This document shows, one piece after another, positions 59,041 to 64,000 of a stretch of 64,000 bases of DNA. The translations under genes and the position numbers were made by a program. The stretch is from a phage. The DNA lies in assembly GCA_018027755.1 (NCBI GenBank), contig GCA_018027755.1_4098.1; one strand, 5' to 3'. The notes below the pieces were generated by a model. It saw nothing but the letters and a program-made list of their open reading frames with translations, was not told the DNA's origin and did no database searches. Numbering within the stretch: the first letter of the stretch is position 1; every line of letters begins with the position of its first letter.

Positions 59041-59145
59041 TTAAAAGTATTTGTAGAAAGTACTTGCACAGTACTGAAAAAAGCGTATAATGTTTTACAT
59101 CGAGAGCGGGAACACTTCCCTACTCACTTTTAAGAGATTAAAACG

Positions 59146-59508
59146 ATGGCGACTCAAATCACTAAAATCATTGCTAACCTGGTTAACTTCCGCGACGATA
59201 TGAAAGATCTTCCGGCGGCAACGGTTAAAACTCACATTGACGCATACCGCGAACTGATTAAAATGCTGCCGCTTAAGCGTGAACAATACGCCGCCACCGT
59301 GATGCTTGATGCGATGATCCATAAGATGATCGCCAGTGATTTGACGATGGTTTATCAGTATATGGGCGAAAATTTCGCGGTGTATAGTAAACCAGTACCA
59401 GGAATGGAAAGTACAGAAGTATTACACGGTTTAAATTTAAAACAAGATGCATGGGATAATATGCCTCGTTTCCTGGTATGGGCTGACAGTGGCAAAATTT
59501 ACGAATAA
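59146..59508 (+). CDS. hypothetical protein (early module)
   Basis: Consensus promoter plus leader hairpin upstream; GC-richer codon usage in the 5' two-thirds. Confidence 0.6.
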   Translation: MATQITKIIANLVNFRDDMKDLPAATVKTHIDAYRELIKMLPLKREQYAATVMLDAMIHKMIASDLTMVYQYMGENFAVYSKPVPGMESTEVLHGLNLKQDAWDNMPRFLVWADSGKIYE

Positions 59509-59522
59509 GTTTTAGAAAGTAC

Positions 59523-59550
59523 TTGCAAACTAAGTTTAAAAGCGTATAAT
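59523..59550 (+). promoter_or_regulatory. consensus promoter
   Basis: ttgcaaactaagtttaaaagcgtataat, followed by hairpin gtggggaatagttccccac. Confidence 0.65.
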
Positions 59551-59600
59551 GTTTTACATCAGGTGGGGAATAGTTCCCCACTATATAAGAGGATTAAAAA

Positions 59601-59840
59601 ATGGCTAAATCAAAAATGTTCTTAGGTCACAAAAACAAAACTCATTGGAATGTAAGCCTTTGGATTAATAACGATGAGTCATTGTACCGGTTGGCCCTGG
59701 ACTTTATTGCCGCCAATACTAATCGCAATGATGCGGCCCGTCATATGATGTTATTTTTAGAACAGACTGGACAAGATAAAACACCGGACGGATTCAAATA
59801 TAGCACTACTGCGATCCGTGCGGCGATGGTTGGAATGTAA
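59601..59840 (+). CDS. hypothetical protein, paralog of 61645..61884
   Basis: Shared GHKNKTHWNVSLWINNDESLYR...TPDGFKYSTTAIRAAMVGM. Confidence 0.65.
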   Translation: MAKSKMFLGHKNKTHWNVSLWINNDESLYRLALDFIAANTNRNDAARHMMLFLEQTGQDKTPDGFKYSTTAIRAAMVGM

Positions 59841-59926
59841 TAGAATTTATTTAAAGTACTATCATTTTTTTGCGATAGTACTTTATAATAGTGTTTTATT
59901 CATACACCAACGATAAGGGCAACAGC

Positions 59927-60193
59927 ATGAATATTAAGTATTTTGCGACGCGTGAACAAGCTCGGATCGCCGCTCGCCAGGACGGGGCAACGTTTAAAGA
60001 TATGGGCGTACAATCGGAACGTGGTAAACGTTGGGCCATTGTAAAGCGTAGTACCGCCAGATCATTACAGTACTGGTTAGCGGCCTTAAAAAGTCCCGAT
60101 AGTGTATCGCGTCGAGTGGTAGAAATAAAGCTCGACCGAAAGGGCAACCGCGTGACCGTGTACCGTACTAAAAAGATTGCAGTACTTGAATAA
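59927..60193 (+). CDS. hypothetical basic protein
   Basis: Track ORF 59891..60193; start moved to ATG after AAGGGCAACAGC. Confidence 0.5.
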   Translation: MNIKYFATREQARIAARQDGATFKDMGVQSERGKRWAIVKRSTARSLQYWLAALKSPDSVSRRVVEIKLDRKGNRVTVYRTKKIAVLE

Positions 60194-60200
60194 AAAGTAC

Positions 60201-60228
60201 TTGCAAACTATGTTTAATGGCGTATAAT
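60201..60228 (+). promoter_or_regulatory. consensus promoter
   Basis: ttgcaaactatgtttaatggcgtataat, followed by hairpin gcgggaacacttcccgc. Confidence 0.65.
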
Positions 60229-60281
60229 GTTTTACATCGAGAGCGGGAACACTTCCCGCCTATAACCTGGAGTAATAAAAA

Positions 60282-60512
60282 ATGACTAATATGTATATGA
60301 CTGAAGTTAAAACCGTAAAAGATACTACCACGAATAAAACTACTTACTTACAGCGGATCTGCGGTGTATGGCAACGTATCAGCAAATCAAAGTACTTTAA
60401 ATTAACATCATATGCAAATCGTTCGGATTCATTCAGTACTGAAATAAAAGGTAATAAAGTACACCAATACGGCACTTATTATTATTACAGCCTGGACGCG
60501 ATTGCAGTATAA
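60282..60512 (+). CDS. hypothetical protein
   Basis: SD GGAGTAATAAAAA upstream. Confidence 0.55.
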   Translation: MTNMYMTEVKTVKDTTTNKTTYLQRICGVWQRISKSKYFKLTSYANRSDSFSTEIKGNKVHQYGTYYYYSLDAIAV

Positions 60513-60764
60513 TCATATTTTTTGAAAAATTTACAATTGCCGGTATTGACTTATTTTGTCAGTACTGGCATAATGTATTCATTGGCAGATAAGCCGTAGC
60601 CCATAGGGTGCGGGAGTGTATCTATAGAAAAATTAGTTTAGTATAGTTACAATTGTGCACCCGGTGGGTTAGCTGTTGTCATGGGGTATATTATGCCAGT
60701 ACTTGATAATGCTGTCAATACTTTTTTTTAATATTCAGTACTGAAAACTATTTTTAAAAAGTAC

Positions 60765-60791
60765 TTGTAAACTATGTTTAAAGGCGTATAA
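60765..60791 (+). promoter_or_regulatory. consensus promoter
   Basis: ttgtaaactatgtttaaaggcgtataat. Confidence 0.55.
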
Positions 60792-60882
60792 TGTTTTACA
60801 TCAGGACGGGGAACGAAATAAGTAACTTCCCGTTAAGTAGCCCAGGAGTAAGGCACACGAAAAACTCCCCTGATAAAATAGT

Positions 60883-60910
60883 TTGACAATAGAAAGTAAA
60901 AGCGTATAAT
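60883..60910 (+). promoter_or_regulatory. sigma70-type promoter
   Basis: ttgacaatagaaagtaaaagcgtataat. Confidence 0.6.
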
Positions 60911-60942
60911 ACTTACATCAACTACTGAATGAGGGTTACAAA

Positions 60943-62288: not shown

Positions 62289-62510
62289 ATGGCTAATATC
62301 ACTACTCTTTCCCAACTGGAAGCACTGGTGAAATCTATGCGGGAACATGCCGACAAAATCGGCGTACAAGATCCAGCCGTTTGCTTCTGCGACGAATTGA
62401 ATGATGATACCCTGGTAATAGCAGAAGTCCAGGACGTTTCTAACTATTCCTCGCGTTACACTGGCGGCGTAGCAAATAAAGGCGACTTCTGTTTATACCT
62501 TACAAAATAA
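62289..62510 (+). CDS. hypothetical protein
   Basis: Track ORF trimmed to MANITTL after GAGGAAAATAAA. Confidence 0.55.
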   Translation: MANITTLSQLEALVKSMREHADKIGVQDPAVCFCDELNDDTLVIAEVQDVSNYSSRYTGGVANKGDFCLYLTK

Positions 62511-62678
62511 CAACGCGGGGAGATAATAACTCCCCGTTACTTTTTCAGTACTGAATCATTTAATAGACGGATCTCGGCACCCGGTGGGTTAGTGACTGTT
62601 TCGTCTTGATGTAGTAATTATGCCAGTACTGGATGCACTTGTCAACAACTATTTTTCAAATACTTTTTATTAAAATAC

Positions 62679-62706
62679 TTGCAATTAGTTTTTAAACGCG
62701 TATAAT
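62679..62706 (+). promoter_or_regulatory. consensus promoter
   Basis: ttgcaattagtttttaaacgcgtataat, followed by hairpin gggggagcggttccccc. Confidence 0.65.
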
Positions 62707-62754
62707 GTTTTGCATAGGGGGAGCGGTTCCCCCTGGTAACTAAGGAATAATAAA

Positions 62755-62991
62755 ATGCTTGAACAAATCAAATCAACGACTTCGAATGTAACGGGAACGG
62801 TAGCACACTTTACTAGTGATGAATCGCGGGGCGTACCCTATTGTGCTGTACATGTAAACACTGATGGCAACTACTGGTTTACTGTTTACGGATCATATTC
62901 CTTTGGACGACCAGGGCATCAAAAAATTCTGGATAAAGTACAGCCAACGGGTAAAAATATCACTGCTGAAATGTTTTATAAAAAATCATAA
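62755..62991 (+). CDS. hypothetical protein
   Basis: SD AAGGAATAATAAA upstream. Confidence 0.55.
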   Translation: MLEQIKSTTSNVTGTVAHFTSDESRGVPYCAVHVNTDGNYWFTVYGSYSFGRPGHQKILDKVQPTGKNITAEMFYKKS

Positions 62992-62995
62992 AGTA

Positions 62996-63024
62996 CTTGA
63001 TAATAGTTTTTAGTACTGTATAAT
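62996..63024 (+). promoter_or_regulatory. consensus promoter
   Basis: ttgataatagtttttagtactgtataat, followed by hairpin gggggagcggttccccc. Confidence 0.65.
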
Positions 63025-63075
63025 ATTTTACATCGCAAGGGGGAGCGGTTCCCCCTGGTAACTAAGGATAATCAA

Positions 63076-63375
63076 ATGAAAATTGCAATCATCGCCCTGG
63101 CTTTATCTGTTTCCTCTTTCGCTGTTAATGCGTCATTAGATGTAAGTAGTGAAAAATTCATTCAGTGCACTGTTGCAATGACCGATGAAAGTACTGGCGA
63201 GATTGTATTAAAGGATTTAGAGATCAAGCCGGAAGCATTTAAAAACGGCCCGTTCCATGAAGAAGACGAAAACGGTAGTACAACAATTTATTATGATGCC
63301 AGTACTAAACGCGGTTCGGTCACTGTAATGGATACTGAGAAAGTAACTCATACTGGCGTTATTAATTGCCGTTGA
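63076..63375 (+). CDS. small secreted protein
   Basis: Signal peptide MKIAIIALALSVSSFAVNAS; Cys near both ends. Confidence 0.6.
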   Translation: MKIAIIALALSVSSFAVNASLDVSSEKFIQCTVAMTDESTGEIVLKDLEIKPEAFKNGPFHEEDENGSTTIYYDASTKRGSVTVMDTEKVTHTGVINCR

Positions 63376-63396
63376 TAGATACTACGGGGTAACATC

Positions 63397-63627
63397 ATGA
63401 CTAAGCGAATTGTTTTACTTAACGAAAGCAGTACTACACAACTACTTAACGCCGTGCATTATGATATTGAAACGAGCGTTAATCTTATCAGTACTGTCGT
63501 ACTGTTGGACACTGGAAAGGTCGCCAATGATAAAGCGATTGCAGGTATACTAACGGATCTTGAGCCTGGTAGCAGTGCACCAATAACGTTAAATGGTAAA
63601 GTGTTTAATATTTTACTCACTGATTAA
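63397..63627 (+). CDS. hypothetical protein
   Basis: ORF in track. Confidence 0.5.
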   Translation: MTKRIVLLNESSTTQLLNAVHYDIETSVNLISTVVLLDTGKVANDKAIAGILTDLEPGSSAPITLNGKVFNILLTD

Positions 63628-63634
63628 GTACATA

Positions 63635-63660
63635 GCCCACCTGGTGGGCTTTTTTTGTTT
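63635..63660 (+). terminator. intrinsic terminator
   Basis: gcccacctggtgggc followed by T7. Confidence 0.7.
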
Positions 63661-63710
63661 TTGTAGTATCGTAGTACTGAGATACTTTGAAAATAGTTTT
63701 AAGAAAGTAG

Positions 63711-63738
63711 TTGACATTACCGCAGAAAAGCGTAGAAT
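63711..63738 (+). promoter_or_regulatory. sigma70-type promoter
   Basis: ttgacattaccgcagaaaagcgtagaat. Confidence 0.6.
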
Positions 63739-63861
63739 GTATTACATCAAGACGGGGAGCACTAAGTAGACCGCCAGTAAGTCGAACGAAAAACTGGACA
63801 CGTCGAGAAAACTTTGATACACTAACCAACGTAAACTAAACTTTAATTGAGGATTTATAAA

Positions 63862-64000
63862 ATGGCTAATGTAAAATCATTCATCAAAGCACTGGTAGCA
63901 AATGAAACTAACGTCGCGGCTGAGATCCTGGCTGAACTGGATAACGATACCATGAAAGCGGTACGCAATAATTTTAACATCGCGTACAGTACTGCGAAAG
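63862..64000 (+). CDS. hypothetical protein (3' end outside window)
   Basis: ATG after GAGGATTTATAAA; ORF runs off the window end. Confidence 0.5.
   Translation, partial: MANVKSFIKALVANETNVAAEILAELDNDTMKAVRNNFNIAYSTAK

Follow-up and report, generated by a model that had tools for sequence, protein, structure and literature searches.

The DNA at 59050-64000 of the 64,000-nucleotide stretch analysed here (the window) carries a series of closely similar promoters, most of them followed by a short stem-loop. This locus raises the question of what a stem-loop does at the head of so many messages. A first-pass annotation had proposed three roles, those of a stabiliser, a processing site or a protein-binding operator.

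The source is an E. coli jumbo phage of 350 kb, an Asteriusvirus akin to 121Q, PBECO4 and UE-S1. Homologous DNA in vB_Ec-M-J and fEgEco12 forms the left ~21-kb direct terminal repeat, and this sequence homology places the module in the left terminal repeat, with 59050-64000 beginning ~1.7 kb into it. The cassettes lie at the left genome end, probably the first to enter the cell. T5 harbors a pre-early and early gene array in a long direct terminal repeat. The window's array resembles those of T5 and PA5oct in its many small genes of unknown function (all genes neighbouring the cassettes among them) inside a long terminal repeat, all facing inward, with non-coding RNA genes interspersed. The accessible part of the report on PA5oct, a related phage, describes its terminal-repeat genes as highly transcribed early by host RNA polymerase, a probable further likeness, but does not report a near-identical promoter-hairpin-RBS cassette for each gene (PMC7318152). 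From PA5oct alone we infer early timing and host polymerase use in the window's phage. The earlier designation of the locus as an early module agrees with this context of terminal-repeat homology and PA5oct transcription, its timing in the phage itself being drawn by analogy. Rfam covariance models run against both strands of 56000-64000 gave no match at E ≤ 1.

Promoters and stem-loops of the array

A scan of the whole 64 kb with TTGCAA-N13-GCGTATAAT, allowing up to 3 mismatches, returned 12 matches against 3.08 expected, a number reached by none of 100 shuffles. Nine of these are + strand matches within 59064-63738. With the addition of 62997, the region comprises ten sigma-70 promoters that share the arrangement AAAAAGTAC-TTGCAA-N16-TATAAT-GTTTTAC-ATC. 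Their hexamers score 10-12 of 12 against the sigma-70 consensus, with a 16-bp spacer. The near-identical series described earlier, said to contain ~11 strong promoters ~300-500 bp apart, stands and exceeds chance, but the count is ten and the spacing 118-714 bp. The +1 was taken as the 8th base after the -10, an assumption based on the mapped T7 A1 start, which has the same geometry. The initial transcript is purine-rich, positions +4 to about +17 as predicted being nearly all A or G. The features are listed below; the first coordinate of each promoter is the start of its -35.

59064..59091, + strand: promoter 1, TTGCAC-N16-TATAAT, predicted +1 59099
59108..59120, + strand: leader hairpin, the weakest copy, GGGAA-CAC-TTCCC; gene 59146-59508
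59523..59550, + strand: promoter 2, TTGCAA-N16-TATAAT, predicted +1 59558
59562..59582, + strand: leader hairpin, GGTGGGGAA-tag-TTCCCCACT, -14.2 kcal/mol; gene 59601-59840 (DUF7249)
60201..60228, + strand: promoter 3, predicted +1 60236; predicted transcript begins ATCGAGAG, like T7 A1
60243..60259, + strand: leader hairpin, GCGGGAA-cac-TTCCCGC, -12 kcal/mol; gene 60282-60512
60765..60792, + strand: promoter 4, the upstream one of a tandem pair, predicted +1 60800
60800..60882, + strand: candidate structured leader or small RNA, ~83 nt; long-loop hairpin, then the motif at 60835-60877
60805-60834, + strand: long-loop hairpin within the 60800..60882 leader
60883..60910, + strand: promoter 5, TTGACA-N16-TATAAT, 12/12, without hairpin, leader short and unstructured; gene 60943-61554
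61567..61594, + strand: promoter 6, predicted +1 61602
61607..61627, + strand: leader hairpin, GGCGGGGAG-tgg-TTCCCCGCT, -15.6 kcal/mol; gene 61645-61884, a paralogue of 59601-59840
61904..61923, + strand: hairpin without usable promoter upstream, GGCGGG-N8-CCCGCC; gene 61942-62202
62211..62238, + strand: promoter 7, predicted +1 62246
62251..62270, + strand: leader hairpin, AGGGAGAA-atgg-TTCTCCCT, -11.8 kcal/mol; gene 62289-62510
62515..62537, + strand: intrinsic terminator, GCGGGGAG-N7-CTCCCCGT, then a T run
62679..62706, + strand: promoter 8, predicted +1 62714
62715..62735, + strand: leader hairpin, almost 5'-terminal (1 unpaired nt predicted), -13.6 kcal/mol; gene 62755-62991
62997..63024, + strand: promoter 9, TTGATA-N16-TATAAT, predicted +1 63032
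63038..63056, + strand: leader hairpin, AGGGGGAG-cgg-TTCCCCCT, -14.1 kcal/mol; genes 63076-63375 and 63397-63627
63634..63650, + strand: intrinsic terminator, AGCCCAC-ctg-GTGGGCT, then a T run
63711..63738, + strand: promoter 10, TTGACA-N16-TAGAAT, predicted +1 63746
63746..63861, + strand: leader of 116 nt without canonical hairpin; downstream gene starts at 63862

A stem-loop follows eight of the ten promoters and begins 8-14 nt past the -10; in seven of the eight, it has a stem of 7-9 bp and a loop of 3-5 nt. The pattern is far above chance, but the proposal of a hairpin at every promoter is overstated, as none was found downstream of 60883 and 63711. One extra hairpin, at 61904-61923, is promoter-less, and its 121Q orthologue has a full promoter. 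The window contains 31 perfect G+C-rich hairpins (2.85 in shuffles), seven of which directly follow these promoters. Five sites in the window fit GGGGA-N3-7-TTCCCC exactly, where 0.01 would be expected; they account for six matches, since one of them counts on each strand. Four of the five fall in 59050-64000 and the other is at 58362. The form GGGGA-N5-TTCCCC given at first is exact in only four hairpins and is overstated as a strict motif.

The start codon lies 17-22 nt 3' of the stem-loop in the window, the ribosome site being left unpaired; a hairpin-to-ATG distance of 14-23 nt was also obtained. Short leaders are predicted to fold with -9 to -15.6 kcal/mol, at modest z-scores for single leaders (-1.4 to -2.7). 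The Shine-Dalgarno (SD) sequence and AUG are predicted to be unpaired in all leaders except that of 59099, in which the start region is paired with the 5' end. Leader lengths are bimodal, ~24 nt when unstructured and ~44 nt with a hairpin, and the hairpin is thus a discrete add-on. The presence of the hairpin-less promoters 60883 and 63711 in the same array indicates that expression does not depend on the hairpin. These two promoters, the extent of the array and its resemblance to T7 A1 are absent from the first-pass annotation.

Pairing, polarity and spread of the stem-loop

The cassette series runs on through the entire terminal repeat: bases 1-21525 of vB_Ec-M-J contain 26 hairpin cassettes among 32 promoter matches. 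In the window's 57 kb outside the repeat, a hairpin is found at one of ~10 comparable promoters. Cassettes also occur in Klebsiella and Salmonella jumbo phages and some 140-kb Vequintavirinae; those found in other genera include fENko-Kae01, K64-1 and Vequintavirinae A73. Over five regions, 60 promoter-proximal hairpins with a purine 5' arm were collected. Orthologous genes in other Asteriusviruses bear different, still-pairing stems, and the K64-1 stems have unrelated sequences (e.g. GGGAATGAA, GGGGATACA and GGAGATTCCA).

Among 30 distinct stems, cognate arms pair at -11.4 kcal/mol versus -7.0±0.36 for swapped arms, with 0 of 2000 permutations as good; since the hairpin sets were picked for pairing, only the both-side-change measures are informative. 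Both-side changes are seen at six of the seven pairs, with 35 such cells against 6.0±2.0 after shuffling (0 of 500). Core mismatches are G·T in six cases and A·C in none. The 5' arm is more than 90% purine, the purine arm comes first in every stem, and the loops of 3-8 nt have no consensus. The cassette has a defined and conserved anatomy, its arms covary and its strand polarity is constant. Because the arms covary with the purine arm first, the loops are unconserved and the mismatches are G·T, the sequences favour a structure in the RNA over an operator in the DNA or a protein site recognised by sequence.

These data bear directly on two explanations that require no RNA function. The inverted repeat, at about +5 to +25, could be the palindromic operator of a dimeric repressor, or a cruciform, blocking the early promoters; a position just past the start is common for repressors, and early promoters need eventual shut-off. 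However, half-sites differ within one genome and are variably spaced (loops of 3-8 nt), yet stay complementary, and the imperfections are G·T, which pairs only in the sense-strand RNA. The palindromic operator is disfavoured, and we regard action at the DNA level as extremely improbable. Alternatively, the hairpin might have no function of its own and hitch-hike in a promoter cassette that duplication and gene conversion have spread. Exchange of cassettes is clear: orthologous genes bear different cassette types between phages, and the cassette is present in unrelated Vequintavirinae. Against this, all 30 distinct stems keep pairing, 35 both-side changes are seen, and the element persists in several genera and in one promoter-less copy; hitch-hiking is very improbable.

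The stem-loop could instead be a mark recognised in trans by an RNA-binding protein or a nuclease, of phage or host origin, with roles in the timing of immediate-early shut-off, exemption from phage-induced host mRNA decay, or nut- or put-like modification of polymerase. The inner stem GGGRRAA/UUYYCCC is conserved across genera, polarity is strict, and the numerous copies all fall within what would be a single temporal class. T4 RegA and RegB are precedents for phage regulators of that kind. Nevertheless, loops lack a consensus and K64-1 stems are unrelated in sequence, no boxA was found in a search of the module, the stems are too short for RNase III, and no candidate binding protein is apparent among the neighbouring genes, all of unknown function. 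A trans-acting reader is distinctly unlikely. The notion of a sequence-specific protein operator is similarly disfavoured, given the unconserved loops and the differing stems inside one genome, as is that of an RNase III-type processing site. RNase III sites such as the T7 R sites are duplexes of about two helical turns (~20 bp), whereas stems here are only 7-10 bp. Lambda nut boxB and HK022 put are, like the window-phage element, small RNA structures just 3' of early promoters. However, in boxB a 5-bp stem carries a conserved GNRA-like pentaloop beside boxA, and put is a two-hairpin element of ~70 nt; the window phage has one copy before nearly every gene and almost no terminators to overcome. 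A lambda-type nut site was rejected on the loops of 3-8 nt without consensus, the stems of 7-10 bp and the lack of boxA in the module.

The 5' end and the likeness to T7

Under the assumed +1, stems begin at about +2 to +8, so that the hairpin would sit close to the start of the mRNA. The 5' tail predicted to be unpaired is 0-7 nt, mostly 3-6 with a mode of 5, and is at most 4 nt in about half of the hairpin leaders when +1 is set at the 8th nucleotide after the -10. The element shares with the ompA 5' UTR and with engineered RNA I and rpsT hairpins a stable stem-loop near the 5' end followed by an efficient ribosome site, in messages that require high output. Stabilisation by 5' stem-loops is documented for ompA mRNA and RNA I, and protection from RNase E is reported only for tails no longer than 2-4 nt (PMC2948425). 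The window phage departs from this rule, with predicted tails of 0-7 nt, mode 5, from an assumed start. Moreover, 2-3 unpaired nucleotides suffice for RppH and RNase E (PMC8833179), and simple stem-loops are readily bypassed by scanning RNase E (PMC9943677). Pure 5'-end shielding is thus doubtful in about half of the cassettes, and the proposed stabiliser role, while plausible, meets this difficulty of tail length.

The promoters resemble T7 A1, likewise a host sigma-70 promoter, at the leading genome end, where the window's array probably also lies. Both have an A-tract 5' of the -35 and a -10 followed by 7 nt and A(+1), and transcripts, as predicted for the window phage, begin AUCGAGAG, then G-rich purines (T7 A1 start: ATCGAGAGGG). 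T7 A1 RNA also folds as a 5'-terminal hairpin (-23.1 kcal/mol, z -4.3), and A2 RNA does likewise. T7 and the window phage have tandem promoters with an intervening AAGUAG...UAAGUCGCACGAAAAAC stem-loop motif. In the window, 60835-60877 contains AAGTAG and then TAAGGCACACGAAAAA flanked by stem arms, and is homologous to the T7 A1-A2 interval. Within the 63746..63861 leader, whose first 73 nt are 100% identical across 21 related phages, 63763-63798 matches T7 550-585 at 31 of 36 positions, which 0 of 500 shuffles equal; blastn to phiA1122 gave E 9e-5. This significant 36-nt motif is common to the two long leaders and the T7 A1-A2 interval. In T7, in contrast, three such promoters feed one long RNase III-processed transcript, whereas here 25-30 cassettes provide about one for each small gene. 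In the window phage, a short, regular hairpin (stem of 7-10 bp, loop of 3-5) immediately precedes the RBS, and AGTACT is part of the promoters.

This likeness allows a reading at the level of transcription, in which the G/A-rich, U-poor start is selected for faster escape from very strong promoters, after the manner of T7 A1 and T5 N25, and the pyrimidine arm merely neutralises the purine tract. The hairpin would then be a mask against a decoy SD or template re-annealing, and not a stabiliser. The purine arm is always 5', predicted starts such as ATCGAGAG and AUCAAGGGGAGAA are T7 A1-like, and the reading is independent of tail length. Purine-rich starts (A1, N25) aid escape, and pyrimidine-rich ones lead to backtracking and abortive release (PMC12464699). 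Deletion of the 5' arm tends to let the 3' arm bind the SD (27 of 48 leaders), but these truncated-leader structures are weak (-3.3 kcal/mol) and come without composition control. The nine-base start identity with T7 A1 is not significant alone (81 of 500 shuffles), and the 61904 hairpin is kept without a promoter. Hairpin-less promoters equally near consensus have ordinary, non-G-rich starts, and a G-rich start is therefore not required. We consider this reading possible but unlikely.

A candidate cassette for immediate-early expression

We favour, at a probability of about one half, the reading that the unit is a standardised immediate-early expression cassette with a structural RNA stem-loop, read by host sigma-70 polymerase. 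The most likely role of the stem-loop is that of a structural element in the 5' leader, with the effect of stabilising or insulating early mRNAs. The DNA part would be a strong promoter in which an A-tract and AGTAC directly adjoin the -35 (TTGCAA or TTGACA), the spacer is 16 bp, the -10 is the consensus TATAAT and the discriminator is always GTTTTAC. It would be followed by a U-poor, purine-rich initial transcribed sequence, T7 A1-like and of a kind for which easier promoter escape has been reported. The G/A-rich tract at about +5 to +14 and the complementary C/U-rich tract immediately after it would form a 7-10 bp stem-loop in the nascent mRNA, a few nucleotides from the 5' end, with 17-22 nt of unpaired A/U-rich RNA downstream bearing the SD and AUG. 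The stem-loop would act in RNA, by structure and not by sequence. Together with the initiating ribosome, it may cover nearly all of the 44-nt leader and so limit 5'-end-dependent decay. It may also sequester SD-like purine and anti-SD-like pyrimidine tracts from the true ribosome site and, in read-through transcripts, serve as an intercistronic barrier. The transcription start, the early timing here and the effects on stability and translation are what we infer in this scheme.

A broader and improbable idea is that the stem-loop and the T7-like AAGUAG...ACGAAAAAC motif form an RNA mark common to the immediate-early transcripts of enterobacterial phages, read by a factor or the polymerase. If so, the mark might exempt phage messages from phage-induced decay or time their shut-off. 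It might also make host polymerase processive and help to pull the 350-kb genome in, as T7 A1-A3 transcription does, and the motif in T7 would be an overlooked element of a classic model phage. The layout of the cassette itself appears to be a standard unit for fast early gene expression.

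Promoters, hairpins and leaders of the module

Megablast assigned 59000-64000 to Asteriusvirus, E. coli jumbo phages of ~350 kb. UE-S1 is 97% identical to this segment, and query coverage reaches at least 80% in 11 of the 194 matching records. A loose promoter consensus matches the window 12 times (3.08 expected), and nine of these matches fall on the + strand at 59064-63738; with the promoter at 62997, the module at 59050-64000 contains ten (promoters are named by the start of the -35 element). They share the sequence AAAAAGTAC-TTGCAA/TTGACA-N16-TATAAT-GTTTTAC-ATC. The first-pass annotation placed a hairpin of the form GGGGA-N5-TTCCCC after every promoter. 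A hairpin does follow eight of the ten, starting 8-14 nt past the -10 element, but none is found at 60883 or 63711. Stems of 7-9 bp and loops of 3-5 nt are present in seven of these eight, the remaining one being long-looped. The strict form occurs far above expectation (GGGGA-N3-7-TTCCCC: 5 sites, or 6 strand-specific matches, in the window vs 0.01 expected), but only four hairpins of the region match it; the fifth site is at 58362.

Folding of the short leaders, from predicted start to AUG, gave -9 to -15.6 kcal/mol with the hairpin as dominant structure. The Shine-Dalgarno sequence (SD) and AUG are unpaired in all leaders except 59099, in which the start region is paired with the 5' end. 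The leaders form two classes, ~24 nt and unstructured or ~44 nt with a hairpin, and the gap between them equals the hairpin length. The module has only two + strand terminators, 62515-62537 and 63634-63650, and hairpins therefore lie internally in read-through transcripts. The hairpin at 61904-61923 is promoter-less and its 121Q orthologue retains a full promoter, which hints that the hairpin is of use even apart from an adjacent promoter, for example as an intercistronic barrier.

At 62259-62291 and 61615-61647, ORF callers place the gene start within the hairpin, at an in-frame ATG or GTG; apparently the PHROG profile (profile match from position 11) and the annotation of UE-S1 do likewise. 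Translation more likely starts at the SD-spaced ATGs, 62289 and 61645, and the N-terminal extensions of some database proteins are therefore probably spurious. An ATG is present in many loops. A role as leader-peptide or alternative start was rejected, as SD spacing is just 2-3 nt and the ATG lies within the stem-loop; we treat this ATG, chosen by gene callers in UE-S1, as incidental. Every PHROG family among the neighbouring proteins is of unknown function, and DUF7249 is the only Pfam match.

Pairing of the hairpin arms and possible functions

Across the loci we found 30 distinct stems. Mean folding energy is -11.4 kcal/mol for cognate arms vs -7.0±0.36 kcal/mol after exchange of 3' arms between cassettes, and none of 2000 permutations equalled the cognate pairing. 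MAFFT with RNAalifold on unanchored leaders was dropped because variable tail and loop lengths put the stems out of register, and was replaced by a loop-anchored analysis and an equal-length alignment. The resulting alignment, ungapped, comprised 30 distinct loop-3 hairpins, and at six of the seven pairs both sides vary. Both-side-change cells numbered 35 vs 6.0±2.0 in shuffles (0/500), and the covariation score is 0.622 vs 0.220, with slid registers at 0.12-0.22. Since the hairpins were chosen for pairing, the 100%-paired figure is circular and the information comes solely from the both-side-change measures. In EJP2, UB, 121Q and vB_Ec-M-J, orthologous genes are preceded by differing stems with the pairing kept, and a passenger without function is a less likely explanation.

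Core mismatches comprise six G·T and no A·C, the 5'-arm bases are >90% purine, and the loops vary in length and lack a consensus. Together with the covariation, these properties, as judged from sequence, favour a structured sense RNA over a DNA palindrome or the target of a loop-binder. The protein-binding operator suggested at first pass is argued against both as a dimer-bound DNA palindrome and as the site of a loop-specific RNA-binding protein; a DNA operator and a tag for a trans-acting factor are the less likely accounts. The processing site proposed alongside fared no better, the stems being too short for RNase III. Antitermination of the nut/boxA type was rejected, as boxA is absent and the loops are unconserved.

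The best-supported reading is that the cassette (sigma-70 promoter, leader hairpin and ribosome site) is a standard early expression unit whose RNA stem-loop is structural. Stabilisation of mRNA by 5' stem-loops has precedent in ompA and RNA I (PMC2948425), and the hairpin with an initiating ribosome would blanket almost the entire leader. Three points speak against pure shielding of the 5' end: the predicted unpaired 5' tail (0-7 nt) has its mode at 5, above the cited limit of 2-4 nt, RppH and RNase E need only 2-3 free nucleotides (PMC8833179), and simple stem-loops are bypassed by RNase E scanning (PMC9943677). The hairpin as an obstacle to that scanning was rejected on the same report. In the main rival to a structural stem-loop, selection for promoter escape acts on the purine tract, and the pyrimidine arm does no more than mask that tract. 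For A1 and N25, a purine-rich initial sequence reportedly aids escape (PMC12464699), which explains why the polarity of the stems is fixed. Sequestration of the SD by the 3' arm after loss of the 5' arm, as a switch, was also rejected: 27/48 leaders pair the SD, weakly (-3.3 kcal/mol), and any pyrimidine tract would do so alike, so this is no evidence of design.

Relation to the early promoters of T7

The host-type early promoter A1 of phage T7 (V01146, start annotated at 498) resembles the cassettes in its A-tract before the -35 element and in its -10 element followed by 7 nt and A(+1). The A1 transcript starts AUCGAGAGGGACAC, compared with ATCGAGAGCGGGAACAC at the predicted start at window 60236. 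Folding gave a 5'-terminal hairpin for A1 RNA (-23.1 kcal/mol, z -4.3), and likewise for A2 RNA. The nine-base identity with A1 is not significant alone (81/500 shuffles), so we treat it as a resemblance in register that does not prove homology.

A distinct motif does reach significance: window 63763-63798 and T7 550-585 are identical at 31/36 positions, with a local score of 45 vs a null maximum of 31 (0/500); Blastn against the T7-like phage phiA1122 gave E 9e-5. The leader motif comprises AAGUAG, a 4-bp stem and a conserved 16-nt loop UAAGNCNNACGAAAAN, the stem-loop being written AAGUAG...ACGAAAAAC. Its stem covaries (CCUG/CAGG, CCAG/CUGG, GGAG/CUCC). The motif is common to Asteriusvirus, fENko-Kae01, K64-1, A73 and the T7 A1-A2 interval, and its copy at 60835-60877 lies between tandem promoters, as in T7 from A1 to A2. 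The 73-nt leader 63746-63818 shows no change across 21 phages (100% identity). An Rfam scan of 56000-64000 (E ≤ 1) returned no match, and hence no family for this motif or for the cassettes.

Copies of the leader motif
Window 60835-60877
Window 63763-63803
T7 V01146 550-585
Comparison locus L078, ~6912
fENko-Kae01 (L004), ~3627

Terminal repeat, distribution and significance

In vB_Ec-M-J, the homologous DNA lies within an annotated direct terminal repeat of 21,525 bp, with 1.76 kb between the left end and the first gene start. The fEgEco12 repeat is ~21 kb, as confirmed by restriction digests, and ~20-kb repeats are reported for other members of the group (PMC13070987). Window 57399-57415 equals bases 5-21 of vB_Ec-M-J, which puts the putative repeat start near window 57395, probably also the physical end of the genome. 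Upstream of ~57395 small ORFs are tightly packed; downstream, 1.7 kb of non-coding repeats precede the module. The vB_Ec-M-J repeat holds 53 small + strand genes with 60-100 bp between each, and directly beyond it genes overlap in an operon-like manner. In the related Pseudomonas phage PA5oct, which depends on host RNA polymerase, terminal-repeat genes are highly transcribed early (PMC7318152).

The segment ~57130-59050 is possibly a packaging or terminus region. Its gene-free 1.7 kb after ~57395 has several hairpins, and it contains tandem repeats of the GGATGGCT/GGCTAAAC type (58160-58300) and repeated units 'gattcagtactgaataatagt(t/a)c(c)cctatatagaaaga' (58940-59030). Three non-coding islands (58500-58700, 60513-60720, 62560-62660) are flanked by convergent TG-extended promoters and carry two kinds of repeated element. 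The first, GGCAGATAAGCCG..AGGGTGCGGGAGTGTATC, has a T run after one of its copies and is also present in EJP2, and twice in K64-1; the second is GCACCCGGTGGG. These islands are candidate small RNA genes, by analogy with those in the PA5oct terminal repeat.

TG-extended promoters of the islands
60546, + strand
60718, - strand
62645, - strand
58783, - strand

The cassette series extends at least 12 kb past the window in UE-S1 and fills the vB_Ec-M-J repeat, where 26 of 32 promoter matches have a hairpin. Outside the repeat (57 kb of the window), such a hairpin follows only one of ~10 comparable promoters, at 31625. The cassette is also found in the terminal repeat of Klebsiella phage fENko-Kae01, of another genus, in Klebsiella phage K64-1 (Alcyoneusvirus), whose stems are quite unlike these in sequence, in Salmonella jumbo phages, and in two copies each in ~140-kb phages, at least one of which (A73) belongs to Vequintavirinae. 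Escherichia phage A73 (L077) has complete promoter-hairpin-RBS cassettes and the tandem-promoter leader at 2577-3300. Such cassettes and leader occur at two places per genome in unrelated ~140-kb phages, which suggests that early expression cassettes are exchanged horizontally among E. coli phage lineages. Phage CMSTMSU was left out, its record being UNVERIFIED and its broken hairpins resembling homopolymer sequencing errors. An exact-word scan of IMG/VR with TATAATGTTTTACATC was dropped: its 72 DNA stretches were chiefly chance matches in A+T-rich contigs.

Other repeated elements were observed. AGTACT is the commonest hexamer in the window (1-64000), with 243 copies vs ~22 expected from base composition, dispersed over coding and non-coding DNA; CAGTACTG occurs 57 times. 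In promoters AGTACT has two fixed places, over the -35 (39/106) and abutting the -10 (34/106). It is 15-20x enriched in other Asteriusvirus loci, fENko-Kae01 and K64-1 (loci including L003, L004 and L078) and not enriched in Vequintavirinae A73. At ~37000-50600, on the - strand, are repeated gene cassettes, labelled RCC1-like or DNA condensation proteins in the UE-S1 annotation; each gene has TATAGTATAATGAATAAAGGAGG upstream and, as boundary, a GCCAGTAC-N3-5-GTACTGGC hairpin holding AGTACT halves. A composite element, AAAGGGnTTGACttcgGTCAnCCCTTTTGCTATTATATA, recurs as a terminator-like hairpin whose 5' arm includes a -35 TTGAC, with a -10-like TATTAT or TATAAT downstream at promoter spacing. 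fENko-Kae01 has a second promoter class, in which an inverted repeat brackets the -10 hexamer itself; by its sequence, this repeat looks more like a DNA operator or promoter-occluding structure.

Positions of two further elements
Window 23052-23085, 27052-27085 and 33770-33870: AAAGGGnTTGACttcgGTCAnCCCTTTTGCTATTATATA-form element
Comparison locus L001, 20183, 23540, 26547 and 28806: AAAGGGnTTGACttcgGTCAnCCCTTTTGCTATTATATA-form element
L004, 6279, 8589, 11699, 16827 and 17886: second promoter class, GGGGAT...ATCCCC and GGGAGTATT...AATACTCCC

The papers searched on Asteriusvirus and relatives (RaK2, fENko-Kae01, Sharanji, UE-S1) make no mention of these promoters, hairpins and cassettes or of AGTACT, and the literature searched held no promoter or transcriptome study of Asteriusvirus; hardly anything has been described of first-gene expression in RaK2/121Q-type jumbo phages. 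Strong sigma-70 early promoters, purine-rich starts and 5' stem-loops are known kinds of element. New are their fusion into a conserved ~30-copy unit marking the terminal-repeat gene set, and the link of the cassettes to T7 A1. The T7-shared leader motif and the genome-wide AGTACT excess are leads separate from the cassette. With ~30 stem variants on one constant scaffold, the cassettes form a natural library well suited to testing how a near-5' stem-loop affects translation, stability and escape in E. coli, and the unit may also serve where a strong, insulated expression part is wanted. This compact, much-repeated promoter-leader-RBS unit marks a putative immediate-early gene set in several genera, supplies concrete predicted start sites open to testing, and connects these jumbo phages with the T7 A1 paradigm.
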